Of a stretch of 53,448 bases of DNA, positions 19,053-49,561 are shown in pieces (the first letter of the stretch is position 1; each line of letters starts with the position of its first letter). Source of the DNA: a virus (lineage: Duplodnaviria; Caudoviricetes); the IMG/VR virus record IMGVR_UViG_3300048591_001682, positions 1 through 53,448 of that record; one strand, given 5' to 3'. The translations under genes and the position numbers were made by a program. Under the pieces are notes generated by a model. That model did no database searches. It had not been told where the DNA came from and was given only the letters and a program-made list of their open reading frames with translations.

Positions 19053-19061
19053 GCGCGTCGA

Positions 19062-19574
19062 TCACACCGCGTCGAACTCAGGGCGGAAGCGCACGACCCC
19101 CCACACGCCGTCGAGCCCATCCGGCGAGAGGCGCTGAACGAAGAAGACCTCGTCCGGCACCGGTTTTTCCCACCGGAGGTTGTGGCTGCTGGCCCGCACG
19201 AAGCCGTGGCGTGGGTAGTAGTCGGCGTGGCCAAGGACCACGCACAGTGGGTGCCCAGCGGCCCCAAGACGCCGCAGCCCCTCTTCGATGAGCTTGCCAC
19301 CGATGCCTTGGCGTTGATGAGCCGGCGAGACGGCCATCGGCGCGAGTCCGACTCCTTGGGCCGCGCGCGCCTCCGACTCGATGACGACGGGTGAGAACGC
19401 GATGTGGCCGATGACTTCGCCACTCGCCACCGCCACGAGCGACAGGCTGAGCGCCGCGTTGGCTCGCAGGGCATCGACCAGTCGCGCTTCGCCGTCGGTC
19501 TCGAACGCCGACACGTTCAGAGCGCGGATCGCGGCGATGTCGGCAGGCGTCTCTTCGCGGATCTCAATCTGCAT
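19062..19574 (-). CDS. GNAT acetyltransferase (YhbS-like), accessory
   Basis: IGHIAFSPV, LAPMAVSPAHQRQGIGGKLI, VLGHADYYPRHGF. Confidence 0.9.
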   Translation of the reverse strand: MQIEIREETPADIAAIRALNVSAFETDGEARLVDALRANAALSLSLVAVASGEVIGHIAFSPVVIESEARAAQGVGLAPMAVSPAHQRQGIGGKLIEEGLRRLGAAGHPLCVVLGHADYYPRHGFVRASSHNLRWEKPVPDEVFFVQRLSPDGLDGVWGVVRFRPEFDAV

Positions 19575-19593
19575 CGCGAACGCCATACCACGT

Positions 19594-19623
19594 GTCCCCT
19601 CCACGTGCGGGCGGCTGCTTTGC
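19594..19623 (+). promoter_or_regulatory. Conserved bipartite motif, copy 2
   Basis: GTCCC-N18-GCTTTGC then GGAGG RBS. Confidence 0.7.
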
Positions 19624-19641
19624 CCCAACGGAGGTCGACGC

Positions 19642-19830
19642 ATGCCCGAGACTGCGAAGCCGCGCGCGCCAGAGAGCCGCGCCCCGGATCAGGGGAACGG
19701 CACGGCATCGTCCGCGGCAGCGCGGCAGCAGAAGCGCTACGAGCCGGTCGTTTGGCCGCGCGACTTGAACGCGCCCTCCACCGACCAGCCGGCGTGGGGC
19801 TCCGACCCGGAGGCGCTGCGCGATGGGTGA
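19642..19830 (+). CDS. Small hypothetical phage protein
   Basis: GGAGG RBS; overlaps next start; its WPRDLN resembles WPLDLN at the scaffold C-terminus. Confidence 0.5.
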   Translation: MPETAKPRAPESRAPDQGNGTASSAAARQQKRYEPVVWPRDLNAPSTDQPAWGSDPEALRDG

Positions 19831-21997
19831 CCGCCGCGATGCCGCCATCGCCCACGCGCGCCGCATCCTCGCAGCGAACCAGCGCGCGCGCCAGGAGGTC
19901 GAGAAGACCATCTGGGGATCGCCCGCAGGCAAGAAGCGCCTGGCAGACCGCCTGGTGGCGATGCTCCCGGCGCACAAGACCTACGTCGAGCCCTTCGCCG
20001 GCAGCGCTGCGGTGCTGTTCGCCAAGGAGCCCTCGGAGGTCGAGGTCATCAACGATGCGGACCTCGAGATCGCGGACGCCTACCGGCTCATCAAGAAGCT
20101 CTCGTCCGAGGGGCTCGCGAAGCTGAAGAAGCTGCCGTGGGTCGGCGACGAGGAGACCTTCAAGCGGCTCCTCGACGTTGAGCCCGAGGACGACGTCGAG
20201 CGGCTGCACCGCTTTCTGTACCTGACGCACTTCTCCCACGGGAAGATGCGCGGCAAGAGCTTCAGCCCGACCGTGGTTGGCGTCGAGGCGACGACCATCA
20301 AGCGCATCGAGAAGTTCGCGCCGCGCCTGAAGAAGGTGAAGGTCTACGGCGGCGACTACGAGAAGGTCGTTCGCAAGTACGACAGTAAGGACACCGTCTT
20401 CTTCCTCGATCCGCCGTACCCCGGCTACAACGTGGACGTTGGCGAGAGCGAGTTCGACGAGGAGCGCTTCTTCAAGCTGCTCAAGTCGCTCAAGGGCCGT
20501 TTCCTCATCACCTACGGCATCCGGGGCAAGTTCCCGGAGCTGGTGAAGGACAGCGATTTCTGGACGAAGCGCATTCGCACCCGCCGCTCCATCGCGCACA
20601 TGCGGGGCGTCGGCGGCAGCTCCGTGCTGACGCAGCTCCCGGTCGCGAACTACGAGCCGACCACCAAGGCGCTCGACGACGAATTCGCCCTCGACGACTG
20701 GGACGACGCACTCGACGACGGCGCTGACGACGTCGAGAAGGCGCAGCCCTTCGGTACGTTCGGCGGTTCGTTCCACTACGCGAAGCGCATCGTGCCGCTC
20801 ATCCCAGCGCACAAAACCTACGTCGAGCCCTTCGCGGGCGCGGCGGCGGTGCTGCACGCCAAAGACCCGAGCGACAAGGAGGTCATCGCGGACCTCGACG
20901 ACGACGTGGTGTTCCTCCACCGGAGCATCAAGGCAATGACGCCCGAGCGCGTCGAGGAGCTGCGCCGCCGCTTCGAGTGGACCGTCACGCAGGAGAGCTT
21001 CGAGAAGGCCCGCGACATGACGCCGAAGGACGATGTCGCGCGCTTCTACAAGCTGGTGTTCGTGCGCACCCACGCGCGTGACTGCCGCCCCGACGGTACG
21101 CACCCGGCGCAGCAGCACCTCGGCTCGACGACGAACCCCGAAAAGTACCTCAGAGCCGCCGAGCGCCTGAAGGGCGTGAGCATCCTGCGGCAGGACTACC
21201 GCAAGACGATCAGCGCCTACGACAGCAAGGACACGTTCTTCTTCATCGACCCGCCGTACCCCGGCGAGTGGTTCGACAAGGACAAGGTCATCGATCTCAA
21301 CGAGTTCATCGACACGCTGGCGAAGGTCGAGGGCAAGTTCATCGCGGTCCTCAACCCCACGCCCGAGAACGTGGCGGCGTTCAAGAAGGTCGGGCACGTC
21401 TTCCGGCTCAAGGTGCGCGAGGCCTCGGGGCGCGGCGGCGCCAAGCAGGCCATGCGCCTCTTCGTCGCCAACTTTCCGGTGCGCAAGGCACAGGAGTTCG
21501 AGCTCGTCGCCAAGTGCGAGCACCTGCCGCTTGATCCCGGCGTCGATGCCCTGGTGTTCGACAAACCCTCGCGCCTCGTGAAGGGCATCGACCCGAACGA
21601 CGAGCGCTTCGTGCTGGGCATCGTGCTCGAGCCGGAGGTGGTCGACGCGCAGGGCGACATCTACTCGCCTGAGGAGATCCGCGCGGCCGCCCACCGTTTC
21701 ATGGAGGACTTCGGCGGTCTCGGGCTGATGCACCGGCTTCGCGTGAACGGGCAGGTGAAGGTGCTCGAGAGCTACCTCGCGCCCACCGACTTCACCATCG
21801 GCGAGCTCGCGGTCCGCAAGGGCACGTGGCTCCTCGCGGTGCGCGTGCTCTCCGACGAGCTGTGGGAGCGCGTGAAGTCTGGCGACCTCACGGGTTTCTC
21901 CATCGGCGGCTCAGCGCGCCGAGTGCCCGAGCCCGCTCCCGTTCAGACGTCGGAACAGCCGACCAACAACCAGCCACCCTCGGAGGCCTCCGCATGA
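19823..21997 (+). CDS. Tandem Dam-type adenine methyltransferase domains fused to XkdF-like prohead protease
   Basis: Two YVEPFAG and two DPPY motifs; C-terminal [19 protein letters not shown]...LMH...GTWLL...GFSIGG. Confidence 0.88.
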
Positions 21998-22791
21998 CGA
22001 CGCCGATAAGCAAGGCGGATGACGGCGTGCATCGCCTTGTCGACATGGTCGTCGAGGAGGTCTCGCTCGTCGACCGCGCCGCCAACAAGCACCGCTTCCT
22101 GATCGTGAAAAGGGATGACGCAATGGACGACGACAACACCACTGACAGTACGACCAACGATCCGTCGCCGCCCGCTGCGCCCACGGCGAAGCTCGACGAC
22201 AACTCGGCGCTGAACGCCGCCCTCGCGGCCCTCGAGAGCCTGACGGGGCTCGTCGAGCTGCTCGGTGATCTCGGCGCAGACCAGGCTGACGCGCGGCTTG
22301 CCGGGCTCGCCGAGGAGCTGCGCAGCGTCGCCATGCAGCTTCTCGATCGCACCGACGGAGATGGCGTTCAAGAGACCGACGATGGCGTCGAGGCGCGTGT
22401 GAAGAGCGAGCCCGCGACGTTCGCGGCCAGCGTCACCGCCGCGAAGCAGGCGCTCGCGCGGCTCGGCGAGTTGGCGAAGCAGGTGCCCGCGAAGGCCGAC
22501 AAGCCCGCTGAGCCGAAGCCCGAGCCCGCCCCGGCGGCGAAGACCGTCGCGGCCGACGTGACCGAGTCGCTCGCGAAGCTCGCCGATTCGTTCCGCGCGC
22601 TGTCGGAGACCGTGAAGGAGCAGCAGCAGCGACTCGGGCGCGTCGAGAAACAGTTCGGACTGCCCAACAGCGCAGCGCCTGCCGAGCGCGTCTCGAGGGC
22701 CACCGTCGAGGACGTGGGATGGCCGCTCGATCTCAACAAGCCCAAGGACCGGGAGAGCGTCGACAAGTCGGTCTCCTTCCACGACCTCTGA
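21994..22791 (+). CDS. Putative head scaffolding protein
   Basis: [12 protein letters not shown]-terminus, helical acidic body, position between protease and capsid. Confidence 0.7.
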
Positions 22792-22813
22792 TTTCCGCCG
22801 GAAGGAGACCCTC

Positions 22814-23755
<942 letters not shown>

Positions 23756-23767
23756 GGAGAACAAGAC

Positions 23768-24172
23768 ATGACCGACACCCTGCTGGTTCGCCTCAAGCCC
23801 TACGACCCGCGACGCGGCTTCGTGCTGCGTCGCTTCACCTACGCCGGCATCCGCTTCCAGGACGCGCGGGGCTGGTACCGCGTCGAACGCAAAGTCGGCG
23901 AGCACCTGCGTGCCGTGCGTACGGTGCCCACCGACCCGTACGCGCCGCTCGCGTTCGATGTCTGCACCGAGGCCGAGGCGAAGGCGCTCGATGCGGGCGA
24001 GAGCGAAGCCTCGAAGCTCAAGCGCAGCGCCACCGACGACCTCAAGCTTACGGCCGCACGCGGTGCCGTCACGACTGACGACCTGCCGAAGAACACGCCC
24101 GCCACCTCCGCGTCGCCGACCGCGAAGGACGACGAAGCGGGAAGCAAGCGCGGCAAGCGCGACCGAGAGTAA
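23768..24172 (+). CDS. Hypothetical phage protein
   Basis: GAGGAG RBS, position after capsid. Confidence 0.7.
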
Positions 24173-24173
24173 G

Positions 24174-24815
24174 GTGTACGCCTCGGTCGCCGACCTGCGC
24201 GCCGAGGGCGTGACTGCGGCCGAGGCGAGCGACGCCCGCCTTGAGCTGCTGATCGCCGAGGCCTCGAGCCTCATCGATCGCGTGACGGGCTGGTTTTTCG
24301 AGCCGCGCTTGCTGACGCTGCGTCTTTCGGGGCGCGACGCGCGAACCATTGAGCTGCCGGTGCCGCCGATCCGAGTGGACCGGCTCGTGCTCGACAGCGC
24401 GGAGCTGTCGCTCGATCCGAGTGAGCTGCTCGTCGTCGGCGCGCCCATCCGGCCTGGCTTCGATGGCCCGCGTCTCACGCGCCGCCGCGCATGCGTCTTC
24501 CCGCGCGGCCATGGCAATGTGGTGGCCGAGGGGCTGTGGGGCTTCACGGAGGACGACGGCACGCCCACGGGGCGCACACCGCCCGCGATCCGCCGAGCGA
24601 CGATGCTTCTCGTCCTGCGCTCGATGGCGCCGCTTGCCGACGACGCCTCGTTCGAGGCGCGCAGCCGGTGGCGCATCATCGAGGAGCGGACGCGCGACCA
24701 GAGCTACAAGCTCGAATCCACGAAGGCCTCGACAGCTGCCGCTCTGACGGGTGATCCCGAGGTCGACGCGCTGCTCTCGCTCTACGTGCGCCCGACTGCC
24801 ATGGGAGCCGCTTAG
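24174..24815 (+). CDS. Putative head-tail adaptor
   Basis: [31 protein letters not shown], gp6-like pattern. Confidence 0.7.
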
Positions 24816-24836
24816 CTTCGGCATTTGCTCCCGCTT

Positions 24837-25340
24837 CTATACGTCCGTAAGGCCCCACGCGGAGCGTTCTGATTCTCCCGGCGCCTCCCATGCATCGGAG
24901 GCGCGCTCGAAGAACTCCGGTGGCACCACCTGCGTGAATTCTCCCGGTGCACGGTTCCGATTCACAACGCGCTCACGCCGGACCGCGCGTGGCGCGTTGA
25001 CCACGTAGACAACGAGCACAAGCTCTTCGTCGCGCGCTCGTTCGTAGTACGTCTCCCGCTCAACTCGCTGGAGGAGGCCGAGCTCGAGGAATACGTCGGT
25101 GCCGCAGCGTAGTGCGCCGAGTGCTACGTCCCACAGCAGACTGCGACAGCGCTCGCGACGCTCCAGGTACCAAGCCATCACGCCCTCCGCGGGGCGCGGA
25201 TCGTCTCCGAATAGGCGCACCATGCAAGTGTCGACGTCGAGGTGAAGCGCCGGCGACTTGGCCATGCGTCGCTGCGCGTACGTGGTCTTCCCGGCGCCGA
25301 CAGGACCGATCAAGAGATGCAGCGTGCCCGGCGACGTCAT
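24837..25340 (-). CDS. P-loop kinase/ATPase (AAA_33-like), accessory
   Basis: GPVGAGKTT Walker A. Confidence 0.8.
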   Translation of the reverse strand: MTSPGTLHLLIGPVGAGKTTYAQRRMAKSPALHLDVDTCMVRLFGDDPRPAEGVMAWYLERRERCRSLLWDVALGALRCGTDVFLELGLLQRVERETYYERARDEELVLVVYVVNAPRAVRRERVVNRNRAPGEFTQVVPPEFFERASDAWEAPGESERSAWGLTDV

Positions 25341-25588
25341 GACTTCTCTTGCGCGCAGCCGTGTGGCTTGAAAATGCGTTGCGTCGAAGCTGGGTTCGCC
25401 GCGAGCTTGTTCGCCGGACGACGCGGGCGCGGAGTGAGCTCACCGGCGCAGTTGGGGCAGATGCCCTTCAGGCGCTCCGTCGTGCAGGTCACGCAGAACG
25501 TGCACTCGAAGGAGCAGATGCGCGCGTCCGGCGAGTCGGGAGGGAGATCACGATCGCAGCATTCGCAGCTTGGACGTAGTTGCAGCAC
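25337..25588 (-). CDS. DUF1272 family protein, accessory
   Basis: LQLRPSCECCDRDLPP..ICSFECTFC..CPNCAGELTPRPRRP. Confidence 0.85.
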   Translation of the reverse strand: MLQLRPSCECCDRDLPPDSPDARICSFECTFCVTCTTERLKGICPNCAGELTPRPRRPANKLAANPASTQRIFKPHGCAQEKS

Positions 25589-25641
25589 AGGGCGGCCTCC
25601 TTGGCCTTGCGAAGGAACCACGGGACACGACGAAGGGCAAC

Positions 25642-25672
25642 GTCCCTGTGGTGCCCTTGAGCGGCGCTTGGC
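25642..25672 (+). promoter_or_regulatory. Conserved bipartite motif, copy 3 (variant)
   Basis: GTCCC-N19-GCTTGGC. Confidence 0.55.
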
Positions 25673-25678
25673 CCGTAT

Positions 25679-26179
25679 GTGCGTGGGCGCCTGATCTTCC
25701 CCTTTCTCGCCGAGCTCTATCGCCTCGATACCGTGGCGATGGCTCCTACCTATGACGAGGACTTCAAGGAGCCGGTGCTCGTCGACTCGGACGACGACGG
25801 ACTCGGCGAGCCCTTTCGAAGCGAGCACCCGCCAGTGCGCGTCCCCTGCCAGGTGGAGCCGGAAGCTTTTGAAGCCTTGCGCATGGCGACGTCCGGGAAC
25901 ACGCCCAGGTCGAGCTTCGACCTGGTCTTCCACTTCAGGGATCTCGAGCGGCTCGGCCTCGTCGACGCTGCCACGGGCGACGCCCTGATTCGTCCGAGCG
26001 ACAGGCTGGGCGCGCTCTACGCGCGCGACGGCCAACTCGTACAGGCCGTGCGCACGCCTCCCGGTCTCTACGTGACCGAGGCGCGTCCCATCGGCTTTGG
26101 GCTCCATCGGCGTCGGCCCAGCCGGAACCTGCTGCTCGTGTCTTTCCAGGATCGAGCAGCGGCAAGGAGCGGAACATGA
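25679..26179 (+). CDS. Putative head-closure/neck protein
   Basis: Position and size; coupled to next gene. Confidence 0.55.
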
Positions 26180-26466
26180 TGAAGAAGCTGCTGCCCGCGG
26201 CACTCGCGCTGGGCAGTCTCGGCGCGCACTGCCGGTCTGCTGACGGATGCGAGCCCGGCGCGACGCGCTGCAGAGACAACGTCGCCGAGCTCTGCGACGC
26301 GAATGGCAACTACCACGAGCTCGCCGACTGCGAGGACGTGAGCGAGCGGAGCGGCGCGCCATTCGTCTGCGCGTACGTCGATGAGACGACCGAGGACGGG
26401 CGCATCACCGGTCACACCTGCGTGTCCGCGAGCGACGCCGACGCAGCGGCGGGAGGTAGGCGATGA
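26176..26466 (+). CDS. Small Cys-rich putative lipoprotein
   Basis: [18 protein letters not shown] signal plus further cysteines. Confidence 0.6.
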
Positions 26467-27104
26467 AGGGCTACCTCCAGTCACTACCGGTGGTCGGCAA
26501 GGTGTTCCACGACGTGCAGCCCGAGGAAGTTCGGGCGTTCTGGCGCTTCATGCAGGATCGCTTTCGTACGAGCGTGATCAACAAGAACAGCGCGCTCGAG
26601 ATGCAGCTCGTCGCGCGAGGCCTCGAGGCGCTCGGCATCCAGAACCGCGAGCGCTTCCTCAAGAACTTCACGACGACCATCGGCCGCCGCATCTACACGC
26701 CGTTTGAGGTCGGCTCCCCGAAGGGCGGCTGGGACCTCTGGCGCCAGATCGTTACTTGCGTGCATGAGCACCAGCACGTGGTTCAACGCGATCGCGAGGG
26801 CTTGTCGTTCCAGCTCAGCTACCTCGCCGACCGCGCCGCGCGCGCCCGCTGGGAGGCCGAGGCCTACCGCTCCAACTTCGAGCTGCAGTTCTGGCGCACG
26901 GGGAGTACGCCCTCCGCGCAGCGCACGGCCTCGGTGCTCAAGGACTACGGCTGCCGCGAGGAGGACGTCGAAGTCGTCGCGAAGTCGCTCGCTCTCGCCG
27001 CCGTTTCCATCCGGCACGGAGCGGTCATCAACGAAGCGACGCATGTCGCGCTCAGTTGGCTCGACGAGCACCTGCCGCGCTTGCGCTTCAGGCAGGTGGC
27101 ATGA
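26463..27104 (+). CDS. Putative zincin-like metalloprotease
   Basis: HEHQH (HExxH) and downstream WEAEAY. Confidence 0.6.
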
Positions 27105-27108
27105 CGTC

Positions 27109-27699
27109 ATGACGGTCTCGCGCACGGGAGAATGGGCACGAGCGCGGCAGCTTCTGACCGCTGCGCCACACCGCCTGCAGACGGCGATCGGCACCGCCGT
27201 GCGCCAGGAAGCCCACGCCCTGCGCAACGAGATCGTCCAGGGGCTTACGAGCCAAGCGCCCGGTGGCGAGCCGCTGAAGCCGCCGTCGCCGCTCACGATC
27301 GCAGCCCGCCAGCTCGAGGGCTTCGGCGGGAGCAAGGCGCTCATCGTGCGCGGCGACCTTCGCAACTCCATCACCGTGATCGTGCGGGGCGACGAGGCCT
27401 TCATCGGCATCTCGCGTTCCGCGCGTTCGAAGGACGGCGCCTTGATGGTGGACCTCGCCAAGCTCCACGAGTTCGGCGGCCCGCCCGTCATCATCCCGAT
27501 GACGCCGAAGATGCGCCGCTTCCTGTTCGCGCTGCTCCGTAAGGCAGGCAGGGAGCCCACGGGCGGAAGCGGTCGTGGGGCCATCGTCATGCAGGTACCC
27601 GCGCGGCCGTTCCTGCGGCCGGCGTTCGAGAAGTTCCGCAGCGGGGCGAGCCGCCGTTTGCTTGAGCGTGTCGCCAAGCAGCTCGGACTTGATACTTAG
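27109..27699 (+). CDS. Virion morphogenesis / tail completion protein
   Basis: [27 protein letters not shown]. Confidence 0.8.
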
Positions 27700-27995
27700 C
27701 GGTCGTCGTCCGGATCGAGCTCGCCAAGCAGCCTGTGCCCTTCGAACACAGTGAGCACTACGATGTCCTTGTCGACGACGCGGTAAACGACGCGGTACGT
27801 GCGCAGGAACACTTCGCGTACGTCGCTGCGACCGATTTCCGGCACGACGCGACCAGCAGTCGGCAGCTCCGCGGCTCGTGCCGCACGTTCTCGTAGCCGC
27901 TCGACCCACGATCGGGCAGCGATTGGATCGTCGAGCGCGATGTAGTCACCGATCGCGAAGAGGTCCGCGATGGATCGTTCAGTCCAGCGAACCAT
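27696..27995 (-). CDS. RelE/ParE family toxin
   Basis: [31 protein letters not shown]. Confidence 0.88.
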
Positions 27996-28316
27996 CTACT
28001 TCTTCTTCGGTAGAGCGCCGAAGCGCGCGTCGAGGCGACGTCCGACCTCGTCGTGGCTTACGACACGCCCCTCCTCGTAGTCGTCGAGTCCCTCCTGAAC
28101 CGCAGCAATGAACCGAGCCTGGGCGGTCAACCGGTCGAACTCCTCGGGAGCTAGAAGGACCGCGGCCGCCTTTCCATTCTGGGTCACGACAAATGGACGC
28201 TGGCGCCCCCGAAGCTCTCGTATTCTTTCCGAAAGATGGGCTTTTAGTTCCCCGATAGGGATGATGTCCTCAGCCACGTGGAGCGCTGACACGGGACCAT
28301 TTTTCGGCCTGCTCAT
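27996..28316 (-). CDS. Phd/YefM family antitoxin
   Basis: IIPIGELKAHLS, PFVVTQNGKAAAVLL; directly upstream of toxin. Confidence 0.88.
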   Translation of the reverse strand: MSRPKNGPVSALHVAEDIIPIGELKAHLSERIRELRGRQRPFVVTQNGKAAAVLLAPEEFDRLTAQARFIAAVQEGLDDYEEGRVVSHDEVGRRLDARFGALPKKK

Positions 28317-28368
28317 GGGACTGAATTTAGACCTATCCCCGACCCCTGACAAGCGGAGCGCTGCGCCC

Positions 28369-28399
28369 GTCCCCAGCACCCTGACGCCCCTGGCTTTGC
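28369..28399 (+). promoter_or_regulatory. Conserved bipartite motif, copy 4
   Basis: GTCCC-N19-GCTTTGC. Confidence 0.7.
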
Positions 28400-28405
28400 T
28401 TGCGC

Positions 28406-29314
28406 GTGGCCCTCCCGACGCTCAGCTCCGTGCAGCCTCCCGCTGGGCCGTCCAGCGGCGGCGACCTCGTTCGGCTCGTCGGAGCCGATTTCGCCGATCG
28501 GGTCCAGGTGGTGTTCGGCGGCGTGCTCGCCGAGGTGCTGTCCGTCCGTGACGAGGCGGGGCTGCGGATCGTCGACCTCCGCACGCCGGTCCACGCGGTC
28601 GGCGTCGTCGACGTCGAACTGCAGAACCTCGACGCGGCGGGCGACCCGATCCCCGGCGAGTCCGTGGTGCTCGCGAGCGCCTACCGCTTCGCGCGACCAA
28701 CCGTCGCTCGCGAGGCCGACCTCACGCGCGTCATCCGGCAGCTGCTGCGCGAGCTGAAGCGCCAGGTGCTCGCCAACGTGAGCGCCACGGTCAGCGTCGA
28801 CTACGACGACACGACGCTCGACGGGCTGAACGTCATCGCGATGGCCAAGGTGCCGTCGCTGGTTCTCTCGGGGCCGACACTGCGCCCGAATCGCTTCTAC
28901 TCGGCGAACGTCGCCCACGAGGATGTGGTGGGTGGCGTCTCGGGTCCCGAGCTCGTTCGGCGCAAGCCGCCGTACACCGTGGACCTGGTCTTCTCGCTCA
29001 CCGCCGCGTCGGAGCGGACAGCCGAGCTGTTCAACCTGATGGCGGCCGTCGCGACGTTCCTGAACCGCAACCGCTGGCTCGAGCTGCAGCGCGATCCCGC
29101 CGACGCGTCGCGAGGCACCGTCCGCTGGGAGCTCGACGCCGATGGCGAGTTCCGCACCCAGCTCGCGGGCAAGGACGACGTGCGCGCGTTCACCTGCGGC
29201 TTCGTCTTGCGCGGCTTCGACGTCGACGAGGGGCTGCTCCTCGACCTTGGCAAGCGCGTCACCGAGCCTGAGCTGCTCCCGACTCAGGCGATCGCTCCCG
29301 GAGTTGCCTCGTGA
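28406..29314 (+). CDS. IPT/TIG-domain protein, putative tail terminator
   Basis: PTLSSVQPPAGPSSGGDLVRLVG IPT-like start; position before sheath. Confidence 0.65.
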   Translation: MALPTLSSVQPPAGPSSGGDLVRLVGADFADRVQVVFGGVLAEVLSVRDEAGLRIVDLRTPVHAVGVVDVELQNLDAAGDPIPGESVVLASAYRFARPTVAREADLTRVIRQLLRELKRQVLANVSATVSVDYDDTTLDGLNVIAMAKVPSLVLSGPTLRPNRFYSANVAHEDVVGGVSGPELVRRKPPYTVDLVFSLTAASERTAELFNLMAAVATFLNRNRWLELQRDPADASRGTVRWELDADGEFRTQLAGKDDVRAFTCGFVLRGFDVDEGLLLDLGKRVTEPELLPTQAIAPGVAS

Positions 29315-29666
29315 CCGTTTCGCTGACCAACACCAGCGGCCGCTGCCTCGTGTTCGTGCTCGCACACGAGACGTACTGCATGGCGCTCGGCGAGTGTCGC
29401 TGCGACGTCGAGCAGGGGCGCCGGGCACGGCGAACGGCGAAGTCGCTCACGCTGGCGAGCGACGTGACCAGCCCTGCGCTCGATGACGCGGTGCTGACCA
29501 TCCCCGACGTCGTGCGCGCGGTGAAGCGCGGCGACCTCAGCGTGAAGCGCCACGTGCCTGAGCTGCCGAAGCCCGTCCTGGCCGCGACTCTACCCGTCCT
29601 TACGACCTCGCTCGCCGAGGTCAGCCGCCCTGACGTGAAGGCGAAGAAGAACAAGCGAGGTGCATC

Positions 29667-29670
<4 letters not shown>
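29311..29670 (+). CDS. Hypothetical phage protein
   Basis: GTGA overlaps at both ends. Confidence 0.6.
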
Positions 29671-31889
<2,219 letters not shown>

Positions 31890-31903
31890 CGAGGAACTAA
31901 CCC

Positions 31904-32365
<462 letters not shown>

Positions 32366-33178
32366 CTACGGAGCGCTCGGGACAGGGTGGTGCGTCCGAA
32401 CTGCGGCATCGAGGCGCCGATGCACGTATGACACGAGCGTAAGGAGATCGAGTGCGTCTTGCTCCGAGATCGCCCAGTCAACGCGTGGCGCGTGGGCAGT
32501 CGGATTCCTAAAGGTGCCGAACAAACCCACGACAAGATTGACGAAGCCCTTCTGCTCCGATCGTTCGGTGTCGTTCTGGAGGCTGTTGATCGCGAGGCAT
32601 GGCTGCTGGCCGCCAAAGGCCCCCTGCACCAAACCGGCGCCGTCATCTTGAAGGCCAGATTTCAGTCGAATCTTTGCGGCAACGCTCTTGGTCGCCTCGA
32701 GCACCGCATGGAAGTAGTTGCCGTCGAGAAGCTCAGGACGACAGAAGGCCAGCACGTCGGCGTGCACGCACCGCGCGAGCAACTTCGCGCGAAGGTCGTT
32801 CGCTCGCACCTCTGCTTCGTTCAGGGTTCGCGCTGCGGTGACGGCAGCAAGCCGGCCGGCCTCAGTAAGGGTTAAACCGTGAAAGGCCAAGATCCTGTTG
32901 AGGGCCTGGCGCAGCGATACATGGACCTCGTGACTACCAACGAAGTTGACCGGAGCCATGACGGCCTCGATAAAGGCGCCGACGTTGTTTCCGACGCGGT
33001 CACTTGCCTGACGTGCCGCGAGCGCCTCGAGTACACGGCGCCACCTCGGTCCCTCACTTGGCGCATCAAATCCGAGCCGCTGAAAGAGATCGGTGAACTG
33101 GCCATGCGTCCGCGCATCCGCCAGAGCACGGGCGATCTGCTCAAGCTGGTCATGTGGGAATGTTGTGATGCCCATCAT
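32366..33178 (-). CDS. TIGR02391-family / AbiJ-like protein, accessory
   Basis: [32 protein letters not shown] (HEPN-like RxxxxH). Confidence 0.8.
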
Positions 33179-33222
33179 CGCTGATTGTTACGCGCAAACA
33201 CCAGAGCGACCAACCACTGCCT

Positions 33223-33253
33223 GTCCCCCCTCGCGCATCCCTGCCCGCTTTGC
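33223..33253 (+). promoter_or_regulatory. Conserved bipartite motif, copy 5
   Basis: GTCCC-N19-GCTTTGC then GAGGAGG RBS. Confidence 0.7.
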
Positions 33254-33270
33254 CCCCGAGGAGGCAGCGC

Positions 33271-36696: not shown

Positions 36697-36708
36697 CGGA
36701 GGCTCGTC

Positions 36709-37221
36709 GTGTCGCTCAACGCCGCTCTCGCTCGCACACCCAGATGCGTACTCGTCAACGTGACGAGCGGCGAGTCAATCGAGTGCCTCTTCAACCCGAC
36801 GCAGCTTTCCGAGAAGCTCGACGTCAACTGGAACCGCCTCTCAGTGCCCGGGCTCTCGCACCAGGTGCTGCAGTTCCAGAGCACGGCCAGTCGGCAGCTG
36901 TCCGGGGTCGAGTTCTATCTGGACCGCTTCTTCGCGGCCGAGCAGCCGGGCGACGTGGATATCCTCGACTTCCGCTCCTTCCTGCGCGCGCTCACCGTGC
37001 CGCCGACAGGCAGCGAAGGCGTCGTTGCGACAGCGCCGCCGCGCGTGCTGTTCATCTGGCCGGGCGTCGTCACGATCGAGTGCGTCGTGGGCAGCATCGA
37101 GTTTCAGTACAAGCAGATCGCGGTCGATGGCGCCGTGCTGGTCTACGCGGCCAGCGTGACCTTCGAGGAGATCCTCGACACCCGCGTGACAAGCGAGGAG
37201 CTGCGAGCCGAGGTAGGCTGA
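36709..37221 (+). CDS. Tail tube initiator (CIS tube N-terminal-like)
   Basis: [29 protein letters not shown]. Confidence 0.75.
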
Positions 37222-37227
37222 AGGCTG

Positions 37228-37986
37228 ATGAGCATCAACCCCGTTAGCGAGGCCGGTTTTGGCGGCGACATGTCGGTCTACGAGCGGGGCCGCCCGTCCT
37301 ACCCGGCAGACGCGGTCGCGTGGCTCGTCGACGGACTCGGCATTCGACCGGGCTGCGACGTAGTCGACCTCGGCGCGGGCACCGGCAAGTTCACGCGCCT
37401 GCTCGTGCCCACGGGCGCGCGCCTCTCGGCGGTGGAGCCCTCGGAGGCGATGCGCGAGCAGTTCGCCCGAGCGGTCCCCGGCGTGTCCATCCTCGACGGG
37501 ACCGCGATGGCACTGCCGCTCGCTGATGCTTCCGTCGACGTCGTCACCGTTGCGCAGGCCTTCCACTGGTTCGACGTGGCCGCCGCGACCACCGAGCTCG
37601 CGCGCGTACTTCGCCCAGGCGGTGGCGTAGGCCTCATCTGGAACGAGCGCGACGCGAGCGTGCCGTGGGTCCGCGAGCTGAATGCGATCTTTGGCTGGGA
37701 CAAGCGTGAGCGTCAGGGCGTGCCGTTCACCGTCGAGGTCGACTGGCGTGATGTCTTCGAGCAGCAGGCGCACCCGCGGCTCAAGAAGCTCGAACGGTTC
37801 GTGACCACCTACCGCCAGAAGCTCGACGTCGACACGCTGGTGCTGCGCGTGCTGTCCACGAGCTACCTCGCCTCTGCGTCGAAGGAGGAGCAGGCGCGCG
37901 TCGACACCGCCGTGCGCGCGCTCGTCCGTGAGTTCCCCGCAGAATTCGAGCTGCCCTGCGTGACGATGGCGTACCGGTCGCTGTGA
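37228..37986 (+). CDS. Class I SAM-dependent methyltransferase, accessory
   Basis: [37 protein letters not shown]. Confidence 0.9.
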
Positions 37987-37988
37987 CC

Positions 37989-38019
37989 GTCCCCGAAGAA
38001 CCGGGGCGTGCGGCTTTGC
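37989..38019 (+). promoter_or_regulatory. Conserved bipartite motif, copy 6
   Basis: GTCCC-N19-GCTTTGC beginning 3 nt after the methyltransferase stop. Confidence 0.7.
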
Positions 38020-38026
38020 CCTGGGC

Positions 38027-38368
38027 ATGGCCCCTCGCACCGGTTCGCGTCACTCCTTCGCGCTCGGCGTGCCCGATGAGCTGGGGCGCCGCTTTCTCAG
38101 CGCGCGCGAGCCTTACCGTTTCAGAAAGCACACCGACACCCGCGTCCACCTCGTCGCGCAGGGCGACACGCTCTTCGACCTGGCGGGGCGTTACTTCGCG
38201 CCGCTCCCGCGAGCGTGCGGCTTCTGGTGGGCGCTGGCTGACTTTCAGCCCGATCCGATCGTCGACCCGACGCTTGAGCTCGAGGTCGGGCGGCGGCTCT
38301 TCGTGCCAAGCCTCCGCGTCCTCACCGACGTCATCCTCGGCGAGCAGCGCAGGAGACTTACCTTCTAG
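38027..38368 (+). CDS. LysM/gpX-like baseplate protein
   Basis: HLVAQGDTLFDLAGRYF..WWALADF..GRRLFVP. Confidence 0.8.
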   Translation: MAPRTGSRHSFALGVPDELGRRFLSAREPYRFRKHTDTRVHLVAQGDTLFDLAGRYFAPLPRACGFWWALADFQPDPIVDPTLELEVGRRLFVPSLRVLTDVILGEQRRRLTF

Positions 38369-38371
38369 GCA

Positions 38372-38773
38372 TCACGATGAAAGTCGCGCCAAGAGCTCGC
38401 GCACGTCGATGTGCCAGTCCGTCTCCTCGCCGTTCTCGTCCCAGAGCTCGCGTAGCTCCGACCGCTCGTAGACCCTTTCCACAGCCTGCCGGGCTCGCGC
38501 CGCTCCGATCTCGCGGACGGCATCACGATTCTCGTTGAGCCACTCCGCGGCCTCCTCCCGCAAGCGGTCGTCCCCCTTGCCGAGCGCTGCGGCTACCAGC
38601 TCCGCGGCCGCCAAGGCGGCGGACGCTTCGTCGACCTCCAGGTAGGCGTCCTCGGCTGATCCTGCAGCCACATCGAGCGCCTCGCCCACGAGGGAAGGAT
38701 CTCCTTCCGCGAGGTCACCCAGCCAGTCGAGCGCCGAATCGTTTTCGAAGGTTCTGTGTCCCCATGCACCCAT
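38372..38773 (-). CDS. DUF4259 family protein, accessory
   Basis: MGAWGHRTFENDSALDW...SELRELW. Confidence 0.85.
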   Translation of the reverse strand: MGAWGHRTFENDSALDWLGDLAEGDPSLVGEALDVAAGSAEDAYLEVDEASAALAAAELVAAALGKGDDRLREEAAEWLNENRDAVREIGAARARQAVERVYERSELRELWDENGEETDWHIDVRELLARLSS

Positions 38774-38803
38774 GGCGCGTTCCTAGCGCAAGTTGGGTCG
38801 ACG

Positions 38804-38833
38804 GTCCCTGCGGCGAGGGGTGAGCCGCTTTGC
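38804..38833 (+). promoter_or_regulatory. Conserved bipartite motif, copy 7
   Basis: GTCCC-N18-GCTTTGC. Confidence 0.7.
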
Positions 38834-38840
38834 TTCGGCG

Positions 38841-40118
38841 ATGAGCACCATCGACCGGAGCGCCCCCGGCGTACGCATCACCACCCTGTCCAGCGAACGC
38901 GCGCCCAGCGGCGAGCCACTGAACCTCGAGGGGCGCATCATCAGCTTCACCTACGAGGACGTTGAGCGACGTGCGGACCAGGTGGCAATCCAGCTCGACA
39001 ACTACAACCTCGACCTGTTTGAACGCGGCGAGCTCGTCGGCGGTGCGACGCTCGAAGTTTCCTGGGGTTATCCCGGCAACATGGCGCCTCCACGGCGAGT
39101 GGTGGTGAAGAAGCTCAAAGGCTTCCAGACACTGACCATCGAGGGGCAATCCACGAGCGTGCTCATGAACCGGGAGGCGAAGACACGCTCGTGGTCGAAC
39201 AAGTCGCGCAGCGATGTCGTGAAGGAGGTCGCCGCCGAGTACGGCTACGAGGGCGCGTTTCTCCACGTCGAGGACTCGGGCGAGGTGCTCGACACCATCA
39301 ACCAGAGCGCGGAGACCGACGCGCGCTTCCTCCGGCGCCTCGCTGCGCGCGAGGAGTTCGAGTACTTCGTCGACGATGCCGGACTGCACTGGCGCTCGCG
39401 CGATCAGGCGAGCGCACCGACGCACGTGCTGACTTGGTTCTCGGACCCCGGGCGTGGCGACATCATCTCGCTCAACGTCGAGTCCGACCTCGCGCGCCGA
39501 ACCGGGCGGGTGGAGGTGCGCGGGCGCGACCCGCTGGCCAAGAGCACCATCGAGGCGCGTGCGAGTAGCGCCACGGTCGAGCGTGCGACGCTGAGCGACG
39601 TGCTCGAGGTCGTCGATCCGCAGACGGGCGAATCGTCGCTGCAGGAACGCAACGCAACGACCAGCGTGCACCCGACTTCGGCGCCCACTCCTCGAGCAGC
39701 AGAGCGCGAGTCGGCGGCTCGCTACCGACGCGCTGAGCGCGAGACGGTGAAGCTGACAATGCAGGTCGTGGGCGACCCGACGCTGCGCGCGAAGCAGGTC
39801 GTCGAGGTGCGAGACATCTCGACGCTGCTCTCCGGCAAGTACTACGTGACGGAAGCGAGGCACGTCATCGCGTCCTCGGGCTACGTCGTCGATCTGAAGC
39901 TCACGCGTGATGGGACCGGTCGCAGGATTCGCGCTGAAGCCGCAGCGCAGGGCCAGCTTCAGGGGGGCGAGCCGAACCGCGCGGCACCGGCTGCTGGAGG
40001 CGCAATGACCGAGGTCGAAGTGTTCGACCCTGCATCGGGTGACGCGCATGTCGAGTATCGACGCGACGGGCGGCAGATCGGCTCCGAGGATCCCGAGACC
40101 GGCACACGACGCCGATGA
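38841..40118 (+). CDS. Baseplate hub (late control D / gp27-like)
   Basis: VSWGYPG, QSAETDARFLRRLA, GDPTLRA, LSGKYYVTEARH. Confidence 0.88.
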   Translation: MSTIDRSAPGVRITTLSSERAPSGEPLNLEGRIISFTYEDVERRADQVAIQLDNYNLDLFERGELVGGATLEVSWGYPGNMAPPRRVVVKKLKGFQTLTIEGQSTSVLMNREAKTRSWSNKSRSDVVKEVAAEYGYEGAFLHVEDSGEVLDTINQSAETDARFLRRLAAREEFEYFVDDAGLHWRSRDQASAPTHVLTWFSDPGRGDIISLNVESDLARRTGRVEVRGRDPLAKSTIEARASSATVERATLSDVLEVVDPQTGESSLQERNATTSVHPTSAPTPRAAERESAARYRRAERETVKLTMQVVGDPTLRAKQVVEVRDISTLLSGKYYVTEARHVIASSGYVVDLKLTRDGTGRRIRAEAAAQGQLQGGEPNRAAPAAGGAMTEVEVFDPASGDAHVEYRRDGRQIGSEDPETGTRRR

Positions 40119-41879: not shown

Positions 41880-42224
41880 ATGTCGGATCGCAAGGAACTG
41901 GGGTTCGACCTCACCACAGCAGGCGGCCTAAAGAAGGCGGCGGACTTTCTCGAGACGCCCTTGGGCAGCACTATGTTTCCCGTGCTTTGGATCGCGAAGA
42001 GGCTCGTGGACTACGCCAAAACCAAGTCCGACGTGAGTCCAGAAAAGCAGGCCGAAGCCGCGGAGAAGATTATCGAAGCTGCTCGGCGCAGCGGAGCCCG
42101 GCGCGTGAAGTTCAAGGTCGACAAGTCGGTCGGCGCAAAGCTCAAGGGGAACGTGAAGGGAGATGCGACCGTCGAAGGAAGCCTTGGCGTCGACGGTAAG
42201 ATGGAACTCGAAGTCGAGTTTTAA
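41880..42224 (+). CDS. Hypothetical protein, accessory
   Basis: AGGAG RBS; Lys-rich, lower GC than neighbours. Confidence 0.65.
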   Translation: MSDRKELGFDLTTAGGLKKAADFLETPLGSTMFPVLWIAKRLVDYAKTKSDVSPEKQAEAAEKIIEAARRSGARRVKFKVDKSVGAKLKGNVKGDATVEGSLGVDGKMELEVEF

Positions 42225-46813: not shown

Positions 46814-46879
46814 GAGCGCTTGGGGTGAGCCAAGTTGGCGGGCTCAAGCAAACGGGCGCGCTACTCTTTGGGGCGCCCC

Positions 46880-47839
46880 ATGACCCCTCCCGTGTTGGAT
46901 ATCGACCTATCCCTTCCGCCCTCGCGGCGCTGGGATGTCCTGCGCCCGTACCGCACCGCGGTGCGCGAGCTCGTGTCGATGTACGTCAGGGATCTCGGCG
47001 ATCTAGCAGGCGCTCGCGACGAGCTGACCTTCTACCGCTTGTCCTGCATCTCGCCCGAGTACGGCGCAGAGATGGATGCCATTGCCGAGCTCGCAGAGCT
47101 TGAGCCGCTCGAGGTGCTCCTCGCCAACGTGTACTACGACGCGTTCAAACACCTCATGGGCTGCACCGCGTTCGCGGTCGATACCGCGAGCGGACCGCTC
47201 CACGCGCGCGACCTCGACTGGTGGACCGAGCGCAACGCGCTCAGCCGTAACACCGTCATCGCTCGGTTCGTCCGAGGTGACGCTCTCTTGTGCGAAGTCG
47301 TCACGTGGCCCGGATTCGTCGGAGCGCTCTCTGGCTCCGCACCCGGGCGCTTCGCCGTGACCTTGAACGCGGTGCTGAGCGACGAACCTCCAGGGGTCGC
47401 GCCTCCGATTGGACTCGTGCTGCGCGACTTGCTCTGCACGGCAGACTTCAATGCGGCTCGCGACGACCTCGCGCGACGCCCTCTCGCCTGCGATTGCCTT
47501 CTACTGCTCACGGGCACGCGCAGCGGGGAGATGTGCGTCATCGAGCGAACCCCAACGCGCGCCGAGGTTCGGAGCACGGACTCCGGCGCAATCGTCGTGA
47601 CCAACGACTACCGAGCCCTCAGCGCGTCTGGGTGGACGCGTGCGAACACCACCACATTGCAGGCTACGTCGTGCGGCCGATACGACCGAGCTAGCTGGCG
47701 CGTTCACGCCGAGCAGTCGAGCTCGGCCGAGGCCTGTTTCGCCATTCTCGACGACAAGGGCGTGAAGATGGACATCACCGTGCAGCAGATGGTGATGTCC
47801 GCTGCCCAGGGGTGGATCTCGGCGCGAGAGGGACGGTAG
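46880..47839 (+). CDS. C45/acid ceramidase-like Ntn hydrolase, accessory
   Basis: IDLSLPPSRRW, GCTAFAV nucleophile site, HARDLDW, WPGFVG, VVTND. Confidence 0.8.
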   Translation: MTPPVLDIDLSLPPSRRWDVLRPYRTAVRELVSMYVRDLGDLAGARDELTFYRLSCISPEYGAEMDAIAELAELEPLEVLLANVYYDAFKHLMGCTAFAVDTASGPLHARDLDWWTERNALSRNTVIARFVRGDALLCEVVTWPGFVGALSGSAPGRFAVTLNAVLSDEPPGVAPPIGLVLRDLLCTADFNAARDDLARRPLACDCLLLLTGTRSGEMCVIERTPTRAEVRSTDSGAIVVTNDYRALSASGWTRANTTTLQATSCGRYDRASWRVHAEQSSSAEACFAILDDKGVKMDITVQQMVMSAAQGWISAREGR

Positions 47840-47847
47840 GAGGCTCA

Positions 47848-48285
47848 ATGTTCGACGAGTTTGAGCCAGTCCCCTCCCTCAACTGTCCGAGGTGTGATGC
47901 AACGATAGACGGCTGGCAGGGCAAGGACGGTCCGTGTTGCCTCGTTCGCTGGCGTCAAGGCCACGCGCAACCAGAGGTCCTTCCCGATGAAGCAGACTGG
48001 GTCGACGCAACAGCTGCTCGTCTCTGGCGTCTACCCCGGTCGTTCGGACTGTATACGACGTGCGAAAGTTGCGGCCTCTGGGTCGACGCAACAGGTTACT
48101 GCCAAGACGATATCTGGTCGTACACCGTACTCGGATTAACCGTGGTCGCCCGAGCCGAACCTGCTTTCAGCGACGAGCCAGGGCGGCGGCGTTGCGGCCG
48201 CTGCAACAACGTTTGGGTGGCCGATCCCGTCAGCGACGTCGGGCCGTGCCCAGCCTGCGGAGTGGCAACGCGCCTCGTCCCATAA
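47848..48285 (+). CDS. Cys-rich hypothetical protein, accessory
   Basis: AGGAGG RBS; multiple CxxC. Confidence 0.65.
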   Translation: MFDEFEPVPSLNCPRCDATIDGWQGKDGPCCLVRWRQGHAQPEVLPDEADWVDATAARLWRLPRSFGLYTTCESCGLWVDATGYCQDDIWSYTVLGLTVVARAEPAFSDEPGRRRCGRCNNVWVADPVSDVGPCPACGVATRLVP

Positions 48286-48382
48286 GCCAACGAAGGCAGA
48301 GACCTTCAACGTCCAGCGGCCTTGGGGTACGCTCGAACTCCGCAGCCGGGACTTGCGCAGGCGTCCTGCCTATAGTTCGAGG

Positions 48383-48859
48383 ATGAGCTCGCCGCTGAAG
48401 TTAGAGATCCGGCCACCCACGCACGGCTGGGCAGAGACCACGATCACGCTCGGGGACGCGAGCGTGTTCATTGACGCGTCGGACGTCGGTCCGGATTGCT
48501 TTGAGCAACTTGCAGGCTGTGCGCTCTATGCGCTGGAAGCCTACGAAGGAATTCGGGAGGCCGTGTTCTTCGAGGAGCCGGGGGCGCACATCCTTGGAAT
48601 TCGACACTGCAAGGAAGGTAAGGTTTCGGTGACGATCCATACCACGCGAGACATGCATGACGCGACCGCGCGCCGGGAGCTCGTCGCGCGAATTGAATCG
48701 ACCGCGTTCGACGTCGCGTTGGCAATCTGGCGTGGCCTTCGAGCGCATGAGACCATGCTCAACGAAGCGAGCGCCGCGGGGCACTGGAACAACTTTCCGG
48801 CAAGAGACGTGGAAGTGCTCGGAAAGCTACTACAGGAACGACGTCAAGACCTGCCATGA
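48383..48859 (+). CDS. Hypothetical protein, accessory
   Basis: HGW and FEEPG segments; coupled to next ORF. Confidence 0.6.
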   Translation: MSSPLKLEIRPPTHGWAETTITLGDASVFIDASDVGPDCFEQLAGCALYALEAYEGIREAVFFEEPGAHILGIRHCKEGKVSVTIHTTRDMHDATARRELVARIESTAFDVALAIWRGLRAHETMLNEASAAGHWNNFPARDVEVLGKLLQERRQDLP

Positions 48860-49128
48860 ACCGCCTCGACGAGTTGAAGTTCGAGAGCGCCGGGGCAAGC
48901 GGTTGCAGCAACTCGGACTACGTCCTCTGCCGAACCACCTGCTGCGCCGCACTCTGCGTGGAGGACGTGGAACTGACGCAGCTCTACGTGGCTCCGGACG
49001 ACCTTAGCAAATTGGTCGCCTTGTGGGGCGATGTTGACAGATGCCCGATATGCGGCGCGGCTGAATGGGACGTGCTGCCAACAGCCGATGATGACGTCGT
49101 CGCTGGTTCGTGGGCACGCTTCACCTGA
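48856..49128 (+). CDS. Small Cys-rich hypothetical protein, accessory
   Basis: ATGA overlap; CPICG. Confidence 0.55.
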   Translation: MNRLDELKFESAGASGCSNSDYVLCRTTCCAALCVEDVELTQLYVAPDDLSKLVALWGDVDRCPICGAAEWDVLPTADDDVVAGSWARFT

Positions 49129-49224
49129 GAGCGGCCCTCGCGCCCGCGACATCGTGCCAAATCACAGCGGTGGTCCGAAGGCGACGGACCTGCAGCGCGG
49201 GACCCGCTCGCGTAGAGTCTCAGG

Positions 49225-49548
49225 ATGAGCATCAGCGAAAGACCGCTGCAGCCGCTGCGAATTCCCAGCAACTGGCAAGTGACCTACAACGAGTTCCGTG
49301 AGATCGATCCGGCGGACGCCAAAGCCGCAGCCTACCTCCGTGAAGACCTCTTCCAAGCCTTCAATCGTCTCACGAAGATATTGATCGACGTGGGCTGGTA
49401 CCCGGATGGCGATCCGGAGGGCGGGTATGTCTTGAGCGCTCATCGGGACGACTTCCACGGAGAGGAGTTGCTCCGACGCGAAGCCCGCACACGCGGAGCC
49501 ATTGTCGAAGCGATCGAAGACGCCCTTCTTCAATTCCAGCCTGCGTAG
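49225..49548 (+). CDS. Hypothetical protein (immunity-protein-like), accessory
   Basis: [26 protein letters not shown]. Confidence 0.65.
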
Positions 49549-49561
49549 TGGATCAGTCCAT

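Follow-up and report, generated by a model that had tools for sequence, protein, structure and literature searches.

Variable accessory-gene slots at operon boundaries in a Myxococcota prophage family, and a putative phage late promoter

The IMG/VR provirus record IMGVR_UViG_3300048591_001682 (53,448 bases, estimated completeness 51%, G+C 66%; hereafter the window, meaning the whole stretch of DNA that was analysed) is, judged from its predicted genes, the virion-structural half of a myovirus-type prophage. It belongs to a predicted prophage family that is widespread across the genomes and metagenome-assembled genomes (MAGs) of Myxococcota. Its structural operons are separated by slots that hold variable cargo genes, and a bipartite motif, GTCCCC-N17-19-CTTTGC (in its fuller form tGTCCCC-N17-19-gCTTTGCc), recurs at these places. 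The comparison with related loci presented here indicates that the slots are probably hotspots for accessory genes (morons) and defence genes of prophages, situated at operon boundaries, with the motif acting as a phage late promoter. A first-pass annotation of the same DNA had seen in this arrangement a distributed, integron-like capture system acting at the motif, and this proposal finds no support in our data.

Turnover of slot contents among relatives

Related loci (n=110) were recruited by the sheath protein, 76 of them from genome contigs and 34 from viral contigs; sheath identity across them is 43-97% and synteny is kept throughout. In each locus, 28 backbone proteins were placed by tblastn and each junction between neighbours was then measured, and longer stretches from three host genomes (G001, G002 and G003) added slots S0 and S8 to the comparison. 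Backbone genes are named here by their start position in the window (g33271, for example) and related loci by numbers of the form L###; a junction is called filled when it spans at least 150 nucleotides (nt), and the filled counts given per slot include the window. Most backbone junctions are invariant and tiny across the loci, and a few vary. At the same junctions as in the window, the Myxococcota relatives carry different genes or none, within sharp boundaries, and not the shared genes or diffuse breakpoints by which the first-pass annotation would have judged its own idea of exchangeable slots mistaken.

The most variable junction, S4, between the tube gene and g33271, is a hotspot of the whole family: it measures 4-7658 nt, is filled in 64 of 90 loci and holds 103 open reading frames (ORFs) that fall into 74 clusters, 43 of the ORFs on the + strand and 60 on the - strand. 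Among 24 close relatives, 19 different left-junction sequences were found at S4. The other slots are filled less widely. S1, before g19642, is filled in 11 of 29 loci, all 29 of which have the motif; S3, between the neck gene and g28406, in 11 of 74; S5, between g36709 and g38027, in 4 of 58 (3 of 57 relatives); and S7, between g41429 and g42297, in 6 of 21. In the relatives, S7 is either empty, 55-72 nt long and provided with the motif, or contains 693-1124 nt of other content, and S3 is an empty slot of 50 nt with the motif in close relatives and a junction of 2-6 nt without it in other clades. S0 reaches 8.1 kb in the window; three relatives have about 630 nt there, occupied by unrelated ORFs on the reverse strand. 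S8, from g45476 to the motif, is 2748 nt long in the window, 9 nt and empty in G003 C9, and 495-1010 nt, with different genes, in the other relatives compared. Empty states were found at S1 (L003, L005, L014, L045 and L050), S3, S5, S7 and S8. S2 and S6 are essentially private to the window: the S2 junction measures -4 to +30 nt in 61 of 64 relatives, and the S6 junction -18 to +38 nt in 55 of 55, with stop and start codons mostly overlapping.

In all, 194 ORFs in 147 clusters were called, and no cargo cluster is common to two slots. Among 15 cargo proteins of the window, two have any homologue in the 110 loci. The GNAT acetyltransferase of S1 has one, 68% identical, in the same slot of L109 only, and the arr product of S0 has one, with 56% amino-acid identity, in another slot, S4 of L022 (12731-13159). 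The DUF4259 and Ymh proteins, cargo of S6 and S4, have no close relatives among the viral contigs. Representatives of the 147 clusters were scanned for protein families, and the matches include AbiEi/AbiEii, the PD-T4-6 kinase, PD-Lambda-3, Shedu SduA and mad6, as well as a reverse transcriptase/group II intron maturase, GmrSD, HEPN, PIN, Arr, MFS and others. By predicted family, slot contents are dominated by defence, toxin-antitoxin (TA), resistance or host-fitness gene types. In addition, contigs from four RNA-library runs (three studies), mapped on positions 19000-38999 at 80% likeness or more, reach a depth of 17-90 over backbone bins and 0.7-7 over cargo bins, and their joints 32365>33247 and 37205>38020 bypass the cargo; these contigs derive from relatives and have no bearing on expression.

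In the window, genes were assigned by gene map and by PHROG and Pfam scans, and cargo additionally by NCBIfam. S0 extends from the terminase stop to the portal-operon motif (7173-15299) and holds 26 tRNA genes, an HNH endonuclease (11544-12074), a Ro60/TROVE-vWA protein (12869-14437) and, on the - strand, the rifampin ADP-ribosyltransferase Arr-ms (14824-15267). The tRNA array with HNH and Ro60 spans 8499-14732, and the whole tRNA/Ro60 block is, on the evidence of comparison, behaving as slot cargo, because three close relatives hold about 630 nt of other content there. The array also includes a repeat of about 140 nt that is not a tRNA (9222-9362 and 10021-10162, 80-85% identical, no Rfam match), and since the Ro60 gene lies nearby, a Y-RNA-like identity of this repeat deserves a look. 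Further cargo on the - strand comprises the GNAT acetyltransferase of S1 (19062-19586, its ORF readable up to 19643), an AAA_33 kinase-like gene (24837-25340) and a DUF1272 gene (25337-25621) in S2, a ParE toxin (27696-27995) and a Phd/YefM antitoxin (27996-28316) in S3, a Hypoth_Ymh/TIGR02391-family protein in S4 (32366-33178) and the DUF4259 protein of S6 (38372-38773). On the + strand lie a class I S-adenosylmethionine-dependent methyltransferase in S5 (37228-37986), a protein of 114 amino acids (aa) in S7 (41880-42224) that matches no Pfam or NCBIfam family, and the S8 cargo (46814-49561), made up of a C45-family hydrolase (46892-47839) and several small ORFs of unknown kind, with genes covering 46892-49548. 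The assignments in S4 and S8 draw on both Pfam and NCBIfam and the other family assignments on Pfam.

Cargo therefore stands in both orientations, as the first-pass annotation had said, with eight window genes on the - strand and at least five on the + strand. Its gene families are likewise borne out by Pfam and NCBIfam, with the exception of the label 'immunity-like' for the Ymh protein, which these scans did not bring out; and its total of nine slots holds only if the slot before 15300, outside 19053-49561, and the degenerate motif copy at 25642 are both counted. The tight packing it had described is reproduced by the gene map at all five places cited: the gap is 0 nt between the tube stop at 32365 and the Ymh-family gene at 32366, 3 nt between 38368 and the DUF4259 gene at 38372, 6 nt between 37221 and the methyltransferase gene at 37228 and 9 nt between the stop of the MuF-like gene at 19052 and the GNAT gene at 19062, and the neck gene (27109-27699) overlaps ParE by 4 nt. 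On the other side, the distance from the end of the cargo to the motif ranges from 2 nt for the methyltransferase to 52 nt for Phd. The G+C content at third codon positions (GC3) is 0.70-0.82 in cargo genes (0.88 in the S5 methyltransferase) versus 0.85-0.93 in most backbone genes. A classical moron has its own promoter and terminator; in the window, one sigma-70-like promoter (28352-28324) stands ahead of the Phd/ParE pair, the sole site in a window-wide sigma-70 scan, and terminator-like sites are fewer than the shuffled expectation.

Taken as loci, the slots lie between two conserved phage genes, and their contents differ or are absent in comparisons of up to 102 loci. By predicted family, these contents are defence, TA or host-fitness genes that would not be needed for virion formation. 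Rousset et al. 2022 (PMC9122126) describe as hotspots loci of about 1-5 kb that are enclosed by a pair of conserved genes, and exchange by homologous recombination in the flanking genes is discussed in a 2026 study in Nucleic Acids Research (PMC13586616). The likeness to known prophage hotspots extends to small size, high turnover among relatives, and a richness in defence, TA and host-fitness genes that are often opposed to the phage operons. The slots differ from them in that up to nine occur per genome, spread across the virion-structural module, that most lie directly before a repeated promoter-like motif with very tight spacing, and that the host phylum is Myxococcota.

The motif and the heads of the structural operons

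A search of the window with the pattern GTCCC-N-spacer-YTTTGC returned eight matches, all on the + strand, against 0.47 expected, and none of 100 shuffles reached eight; taken singly, neither half-site is enriched. The first copy, P0 (15300-15329), heads g15435, the portal gene and the MuF-like gene, and occupies the same place in relatives. P1 (19594-19623), P4 (33223-33253) and P7 (42246-42276) stand 18 nt before the ATG at 19642, 17 nt before the ATG at 33271 and 20 nt before the GTG at 42297, respectively, and each of these distances includes a GGAGG. P3 (28369-28399) heads the operon from g28406 through sheath to tube and lies 6 nt from the GTG at 28406; P5 (37989-38019) lies 7 nt from the ATG at 38027, and P8 (49562-49591) 35 nt from the ATG at 49627. 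P6 (38804-38833), a GTCCCT variant 7 nt before the ATG at 38841, occurs in the window only. A ninth, degenerate copy in S2 (25642-25672, GTCCCT-N19-CTTGGC, two core mismatches) stands 6 nt before the GTG at 25679, all these copies being on the + strand; among relatives, L049 alone has a motif at the S2 junction, 8 nt before g25679.

The relatives show the same bias. In the 110 loci, the + strand has 108 copies of the exact motif and the - strand none; a relaxed form is found 183 times on the + and 7 times on the - strand in 1.68 Mb, window included. In the 10.1-Mb chromosome of Corallococcus exercitus, all seven matches fall within one prophage stretch of 33 kb and on one strand; two other host genomes have motif clusters in the prophage plus a few scattered matches at control level. 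The two boxes are near-invariant, and the spacer, of 17-20 nt, has no fixed sequence. The distance from motif to start codon is fixed per gene: 7 nt for g28406, g38027 and g36709, and 18-21 nt with GGAGG for g19642, g33271 and g42297, g33271 having 37 nt in another clade. Moreover, the motif keeps its place with or without cargo, at S1, S3, S5 and S7 in L003, L005 and L010 and at S8 in G003 C9. In the empty S3 of L003, L005 and L010, the neck stop is followed by 14 nt, the motif, 7 nt and g28406; in close relatives whose S5 is empty, GTCCCC and the TAG stop of g36709 overlap; and in the empty S7, the stop of g41429 is followed by 5 nt and the motif.

The likeliest reading of the motif is a late promoter specific to the phage, or failing that a transcription start element that depends on a factor, heading about seven short structural operons. 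A promoter fits because the motif has a fixed place in empty slots, is strand-locked and is restricted to prophages. We infer promoter activity, and a factor acting on it, from a layout that has what is looked for in a sigma-type bipartite promoter: two boxes, a spacer constrained in length and free in sequence, co-orientation, and a fixed distance to the start codon or ribosome-binding site. In the 7-nt class, the predicted transcript would start at or beside the start codon. Known phage late-promoter sets read by a phage-encoded factor include the C-dependent promoters of Mu, the Ogr-dependent promoters of P2 and those used by the sigma factors of SPO1 and T4. The motif copies are likewise few, phage-only, co-oriented elements heading structural operons; the motif sequence here differs from that of such sets, and its promoter role is predicted. 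Nothing specific on a myxophage late promoter, or on morons at late-operon boundaries, was found in the literature, supplementary files aside.

Two narrower readings were tried and rejected. For sigma-54 or sigma-70 recognition of the motif, the boxes and their spacing are off the consensuses, and the sigma-70 scan gave the TA promoter alone. For GGGGACA, the reverse complement of TGTCCCC, as a -35 box for minus-strand cargo with TANNNT 16-18 nt further on, 1 of 30 contexts fits.

Some further features of the motif were observed. An Rfam scan returned tRNAs only, with no match at motif copies. Between P0 and the first gene of the portal operon lies a leader of 105 nt containing an inverted repeat with arms of 27 nt (15336-15415); despite being non-coding, it is 87-95% identical in three relatives, which suggests that it might be a structured regulatory leader. 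One extra exact copy of the motif lies outside the structural module, at 34441 of contig 1 of G002 (L111 9441), near the serine-recombinase end, and precedes + strand genes without a window counterpart.

Insertion sites, breakpoints and competing readings

The slot boundaries are sharp, yet they are not one crossover point. On the left, relatives stop resembling one another at the upstream stop codon in S0, S1 and S4 and, elsewhere, in the last few codons before it; in the window, the neck gene, g36709, g38027 and the adaptor gene have rewritten ends. On the right, the resemblance returns 1 to about 45 nt ahead of GTCCCC, in most S4 contexts at (C)TGTCCCC. At S0, homology of related prophages to the window ends at 7172 and is back at 15298-15323. 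S4 of some loci also keeps a conserved stem-loop of 16-17 bp between cargo and motif (L014, L041, L042 and, partly, L018), and in L007, L010 and L011 it takes up the whole of a short slot that has no cargo; placed directly ahead of the motif, it has the predicted layout of a terminator plus promoter. In L002 (10446, a MAG contig), tape-measure residues 1-147 are fused to residues 219-445 of the g45476 homologue, without about 10 kb of baseplate genes; this is a deletion or an assembly artefact.

The acquisition route that we infer would have four steps. Foreign DNA would enter by illegitimate recombination, and it would survive only between the last stop of one operon and the next promoter, where operons are left unbroken. 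Related phages would then exchange contents through homologous recombination in the highly conserved flanking genes, and deletion pressure would trim the non-coding remainder. It is proposed that boundaries are sharp and tight because of this trimming, and that slots are concentrated at operon boundaries because insertion is tolerated there. Reverse cargo would presumably be expressed in the lysogen from its own compact promoter. Where a large reverse insert came to lie in a formerly translationally coupled junction, a new motif copy before the downstream gene would serve as a restart promoter.

The orientation of inserts bears on this last point. At junctions that normally have no motif, about ten co-oriented inserts were found, none with a motif, and five of five events with a reverse gene of at least 94 aa have the motif or a close variant (S2 and S6 of the window, L039, L063/L095 and L026, the call for L026 being less certain), in a pattern of small numbers and heuristic ORF calls. 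The new copies lie 6-23 nt before the downstream start, and three small reverse ORFs of doubtful reality have no motif. The pattern is still what a restart promoter would be expected to give.

Several observations weigh against hotspots with a late promoter as the explanation. Insertions are enriched at motif junctions: 87 of 139 junction instances bearing the motif are filled and 52 empty, versus 46 filled and 1201 empty among 1247 without it, an odds ratio of 44 that is not corrected for relatedness. (The junction from portal to MuF was excluded from these counts: two backbone genes between them are outside the marker set.) Tolerance of inserts explains this enrichment, but it would also be expected if the motif had a mechanistic part in insertion. 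No source was found for the new copies at S2, S6 and TMP2>g36709, and a donor search with the right ends of S2, S6, S3, S0 and S8 matched only the cognate slots of relatives. The GTG of g28406, only 6-7 nt past the motif, is awkward for a leaderless mRNA, CTTTGC is odd as a -10 box, and the motif is, in a comparison by eye, unlike the sigma-70 and sigma-54 consensuses. As to a candidate factor, none of 48 Sigma70_r2 matches in G001 lies in or near the prophage, and no sigma factor is among the 25 of 52 Pfam families listed for 41 ORFs flanking the G002 prophage, families that include helicases, DUF2924, DUF5131 and ars genes. Finally, slot ORFs were called heuristically from GC3.

The enrichment is also what would be expected if cargo and the adjacent motif travelled together as promoter-linked mobile modules, or if the motif were a short homology anchor for relaxed phage recombinases, so that it helped to create the slots. 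The precedent, and the closest known counterpart of a regulatory motif that recurs beside variable genes, would be the promoter/stem-loop cassettes (PeSLs) of T4-type phages, in which a repeated promoter with a stem-loop bounds variable non-essential genes (PMC2839356 and PMC4122927). Such modules would account for the new motifs that accompany inserts at junctions always or nearly always coupled, namely S6 (0 of 55 relatives), S2 and TMP2>g36709 (L026, L039, L063/L095 and L067). They would also suit the right breakpoints of S4 (a few nt or less from TGTCCCC in the majority of about 40 distinct contexts), the composite of stem-loop and promoter seen at S4 only, in some loci, and the 65% of insertions that fall on the 10% of junction instances bearing the motif. 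We nevertheless consider this reading unlikely. No cargo cluster recurs across slots, the sole cross-slot family being arr at the 56% identity given above (S0 versus S4 of L022), and the donor search with the right ends of S2 and S6 was negative. There is one motif per slot, and recombination between two copies in one genome would remove essential genes; the large deletion of L002 ends inside TMP2 and g45476, away from motifs. Only some 14 nt of the motif are conserved, and 46 of 133 inserts lie at junctions that lack it. PeSLs lie on both sides of genes in hyperplastic regions, recombine mutually and give rise to mini-circles, and their promoters are early and sigma-70-like. Here, by contrast, a repeated regulatory motif (with a stem-loop too at S4) bounds variable genes on one side of each slot, no cargo is shared across slots, there is no sign of motif-motif recombination in the loci compared, and the motif is not sigma-70-like and heads late structural operons.

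A different function for the motif, as an operator-type binding site, would leave the cargo slots ordinary hotspots either way. Like the one-orientation stoperators of cluster A mycobacteriophages and like start-associated sequences, the motif keeps to one strand, lies in intergenic DNA near stop and start codons and is restricted to phage. This function is nonetheless very unlikely: a bipartite site with a free spacer of 17-19 nt, at distances to the start codon compatible with leaderless or ribosome-binding-site initiation, suits sigma-type recognition better, the motif stands at operon heads only and is absent from most intergenic sites, and it reappears exactly where reverse inserts would interrupt transcription.

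Least of all do the data favour an integron-like capture, in which the motif would be the specific target site of a phage recombinase, such as the tyrosine recombinase at 5044-5661, that inserts cassettes, and we regard it as highly improbable. Like integrons, the slots hold discrete, sharply bounded units of small accessory, TA and resistance genes, with many alternatives for each slot, and the small tyrosine recombinase is conserved beside the terminase in all four relatives examined, at the same position (85-88% identical in three, 66% over half its length in the fourth). However, this 205-aa protein is, by its profile scores, not an integron integrase: it reaches 33.4 bits on TIGR02249 (cut-off 265) and 27.7 on NF011946 (cut-off 435), only its catalytic C-terminal part matches the integron-integrase model, and the XerC model gives 79 bits (cut-off 335). 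An attC site, the structured imperfect inverted repeat that ends each integron cassette, is 57-141 nt long, and the non-coding flanks at most window slots, 0-55 nt, are too short for one. The first-pass annotation had itself noted that no canonical attC was evident, and a family-wide comparison of insert ends agrees, these ends being without a shared attC-like sequence. In this comparison of 87 motif-adjacent inserts, 78 after deduplication, no 7-mer or 8-mer is common to insert ends beyond small lineage groups, and terminal inverted repeats (3.87 versus 3.43) and direct repeats (3.74 versus 3.53) are close to a shuffled-partner control. Crossovers are variable as well: on the left, an insert can take the place of the upstream gene's final codons, and on the right it stops 1 to about 45 nt from the motif. 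The motif spacer varies in sequence and length, unlike the core site of a recombinase. Integron cassettes share one orientation at a single attI platform and one promoter reads them; cargo here sits in both orientations at nine dispersed junctions, and inserts also occur at motif-less ones (sheath>tube; major capsid gene>g23768; g23768>adaptor; TMP2>g36709; g40140>g40744; g40744>g41429; and others). With the motif fixed in empty slots, strand-locked and confined to prophages, with no IntI and with no shared ends, the claim of a distributed capture system acting at the motif is not upheld.

Genome context and biological meaning

The remaining genes place the slots within a recognisable phage order. 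The terminase large subunit (5739-7172) is adjoined by the small tyrosine recombinase, a backbone gene on the - strand, and is followed by the tRNA array with HNH and Ro60/TROVE, then by portal and MuF-like protein. Next come a methyltransferase-protease fusion, scaffold, major capsid protein, adaptor and neck proteins, and finally sheath (29667-31889), tube (31904-32365), tape-measure pieces, baseplate and tail proteins and an amidase. In a collection of isolated phages, the best sheath matches are at most 30% identical, with no named close relative. The fusion is an ORF of 724 aa (19823-21997) that PHROG matches describe as DNA methyltransferase-like in its N-terminal part and prohead-protease-like in its C-terminal part; its conservation is 92-96% in the three close relatives, against 44% in G003 C8.

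Near the left edge, a large serine recombinase (2761-4770, - strand) adjoins a gene for HsdM, a type I restriction-modification methylase, which runs off the edge (3-1988, - strand). The two recombinases are adjacent in the window (4770-5044); in G001 and G002, the serine recombinase lies about 20-24 kb away from the tyrosine recombinase and terminase. The first 100 nt of the window's serine-recombinase region have an inverted match in the relatives, at about 3.3 kb from their tyrosine recombinase. The window element may be rearranged, or its early region may have been lost.

To conclude, our results support slots that fit the already known pattern of prophage hotspots and reveal no new recombination system. 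They form a large and easily recognised hotspot set in widespread Myxococcota prophages (133 insertions of at least 150 nt in the sample), and a candidate phage-specific late promoter is gained from the analysis, together with a suggested rule whereby a reverse-oriented insert calls for a restart promoter. A further idea, that cargo and promoter form a unit, with reverse accessory genes docked together with a restart promoter at any junction of the structural module and independently of a recombinase, is rather unlikely in our view. If it were true, such a docking architecture would allow these phages up to nine slots for defence or accessory genes within their virion operons. The phage biology of this phylum is poorly known; known defence genes are present in many of the inserts and unknown genes in many others, and the slots offer a practical place to mine for new defence and counter-defence genes.

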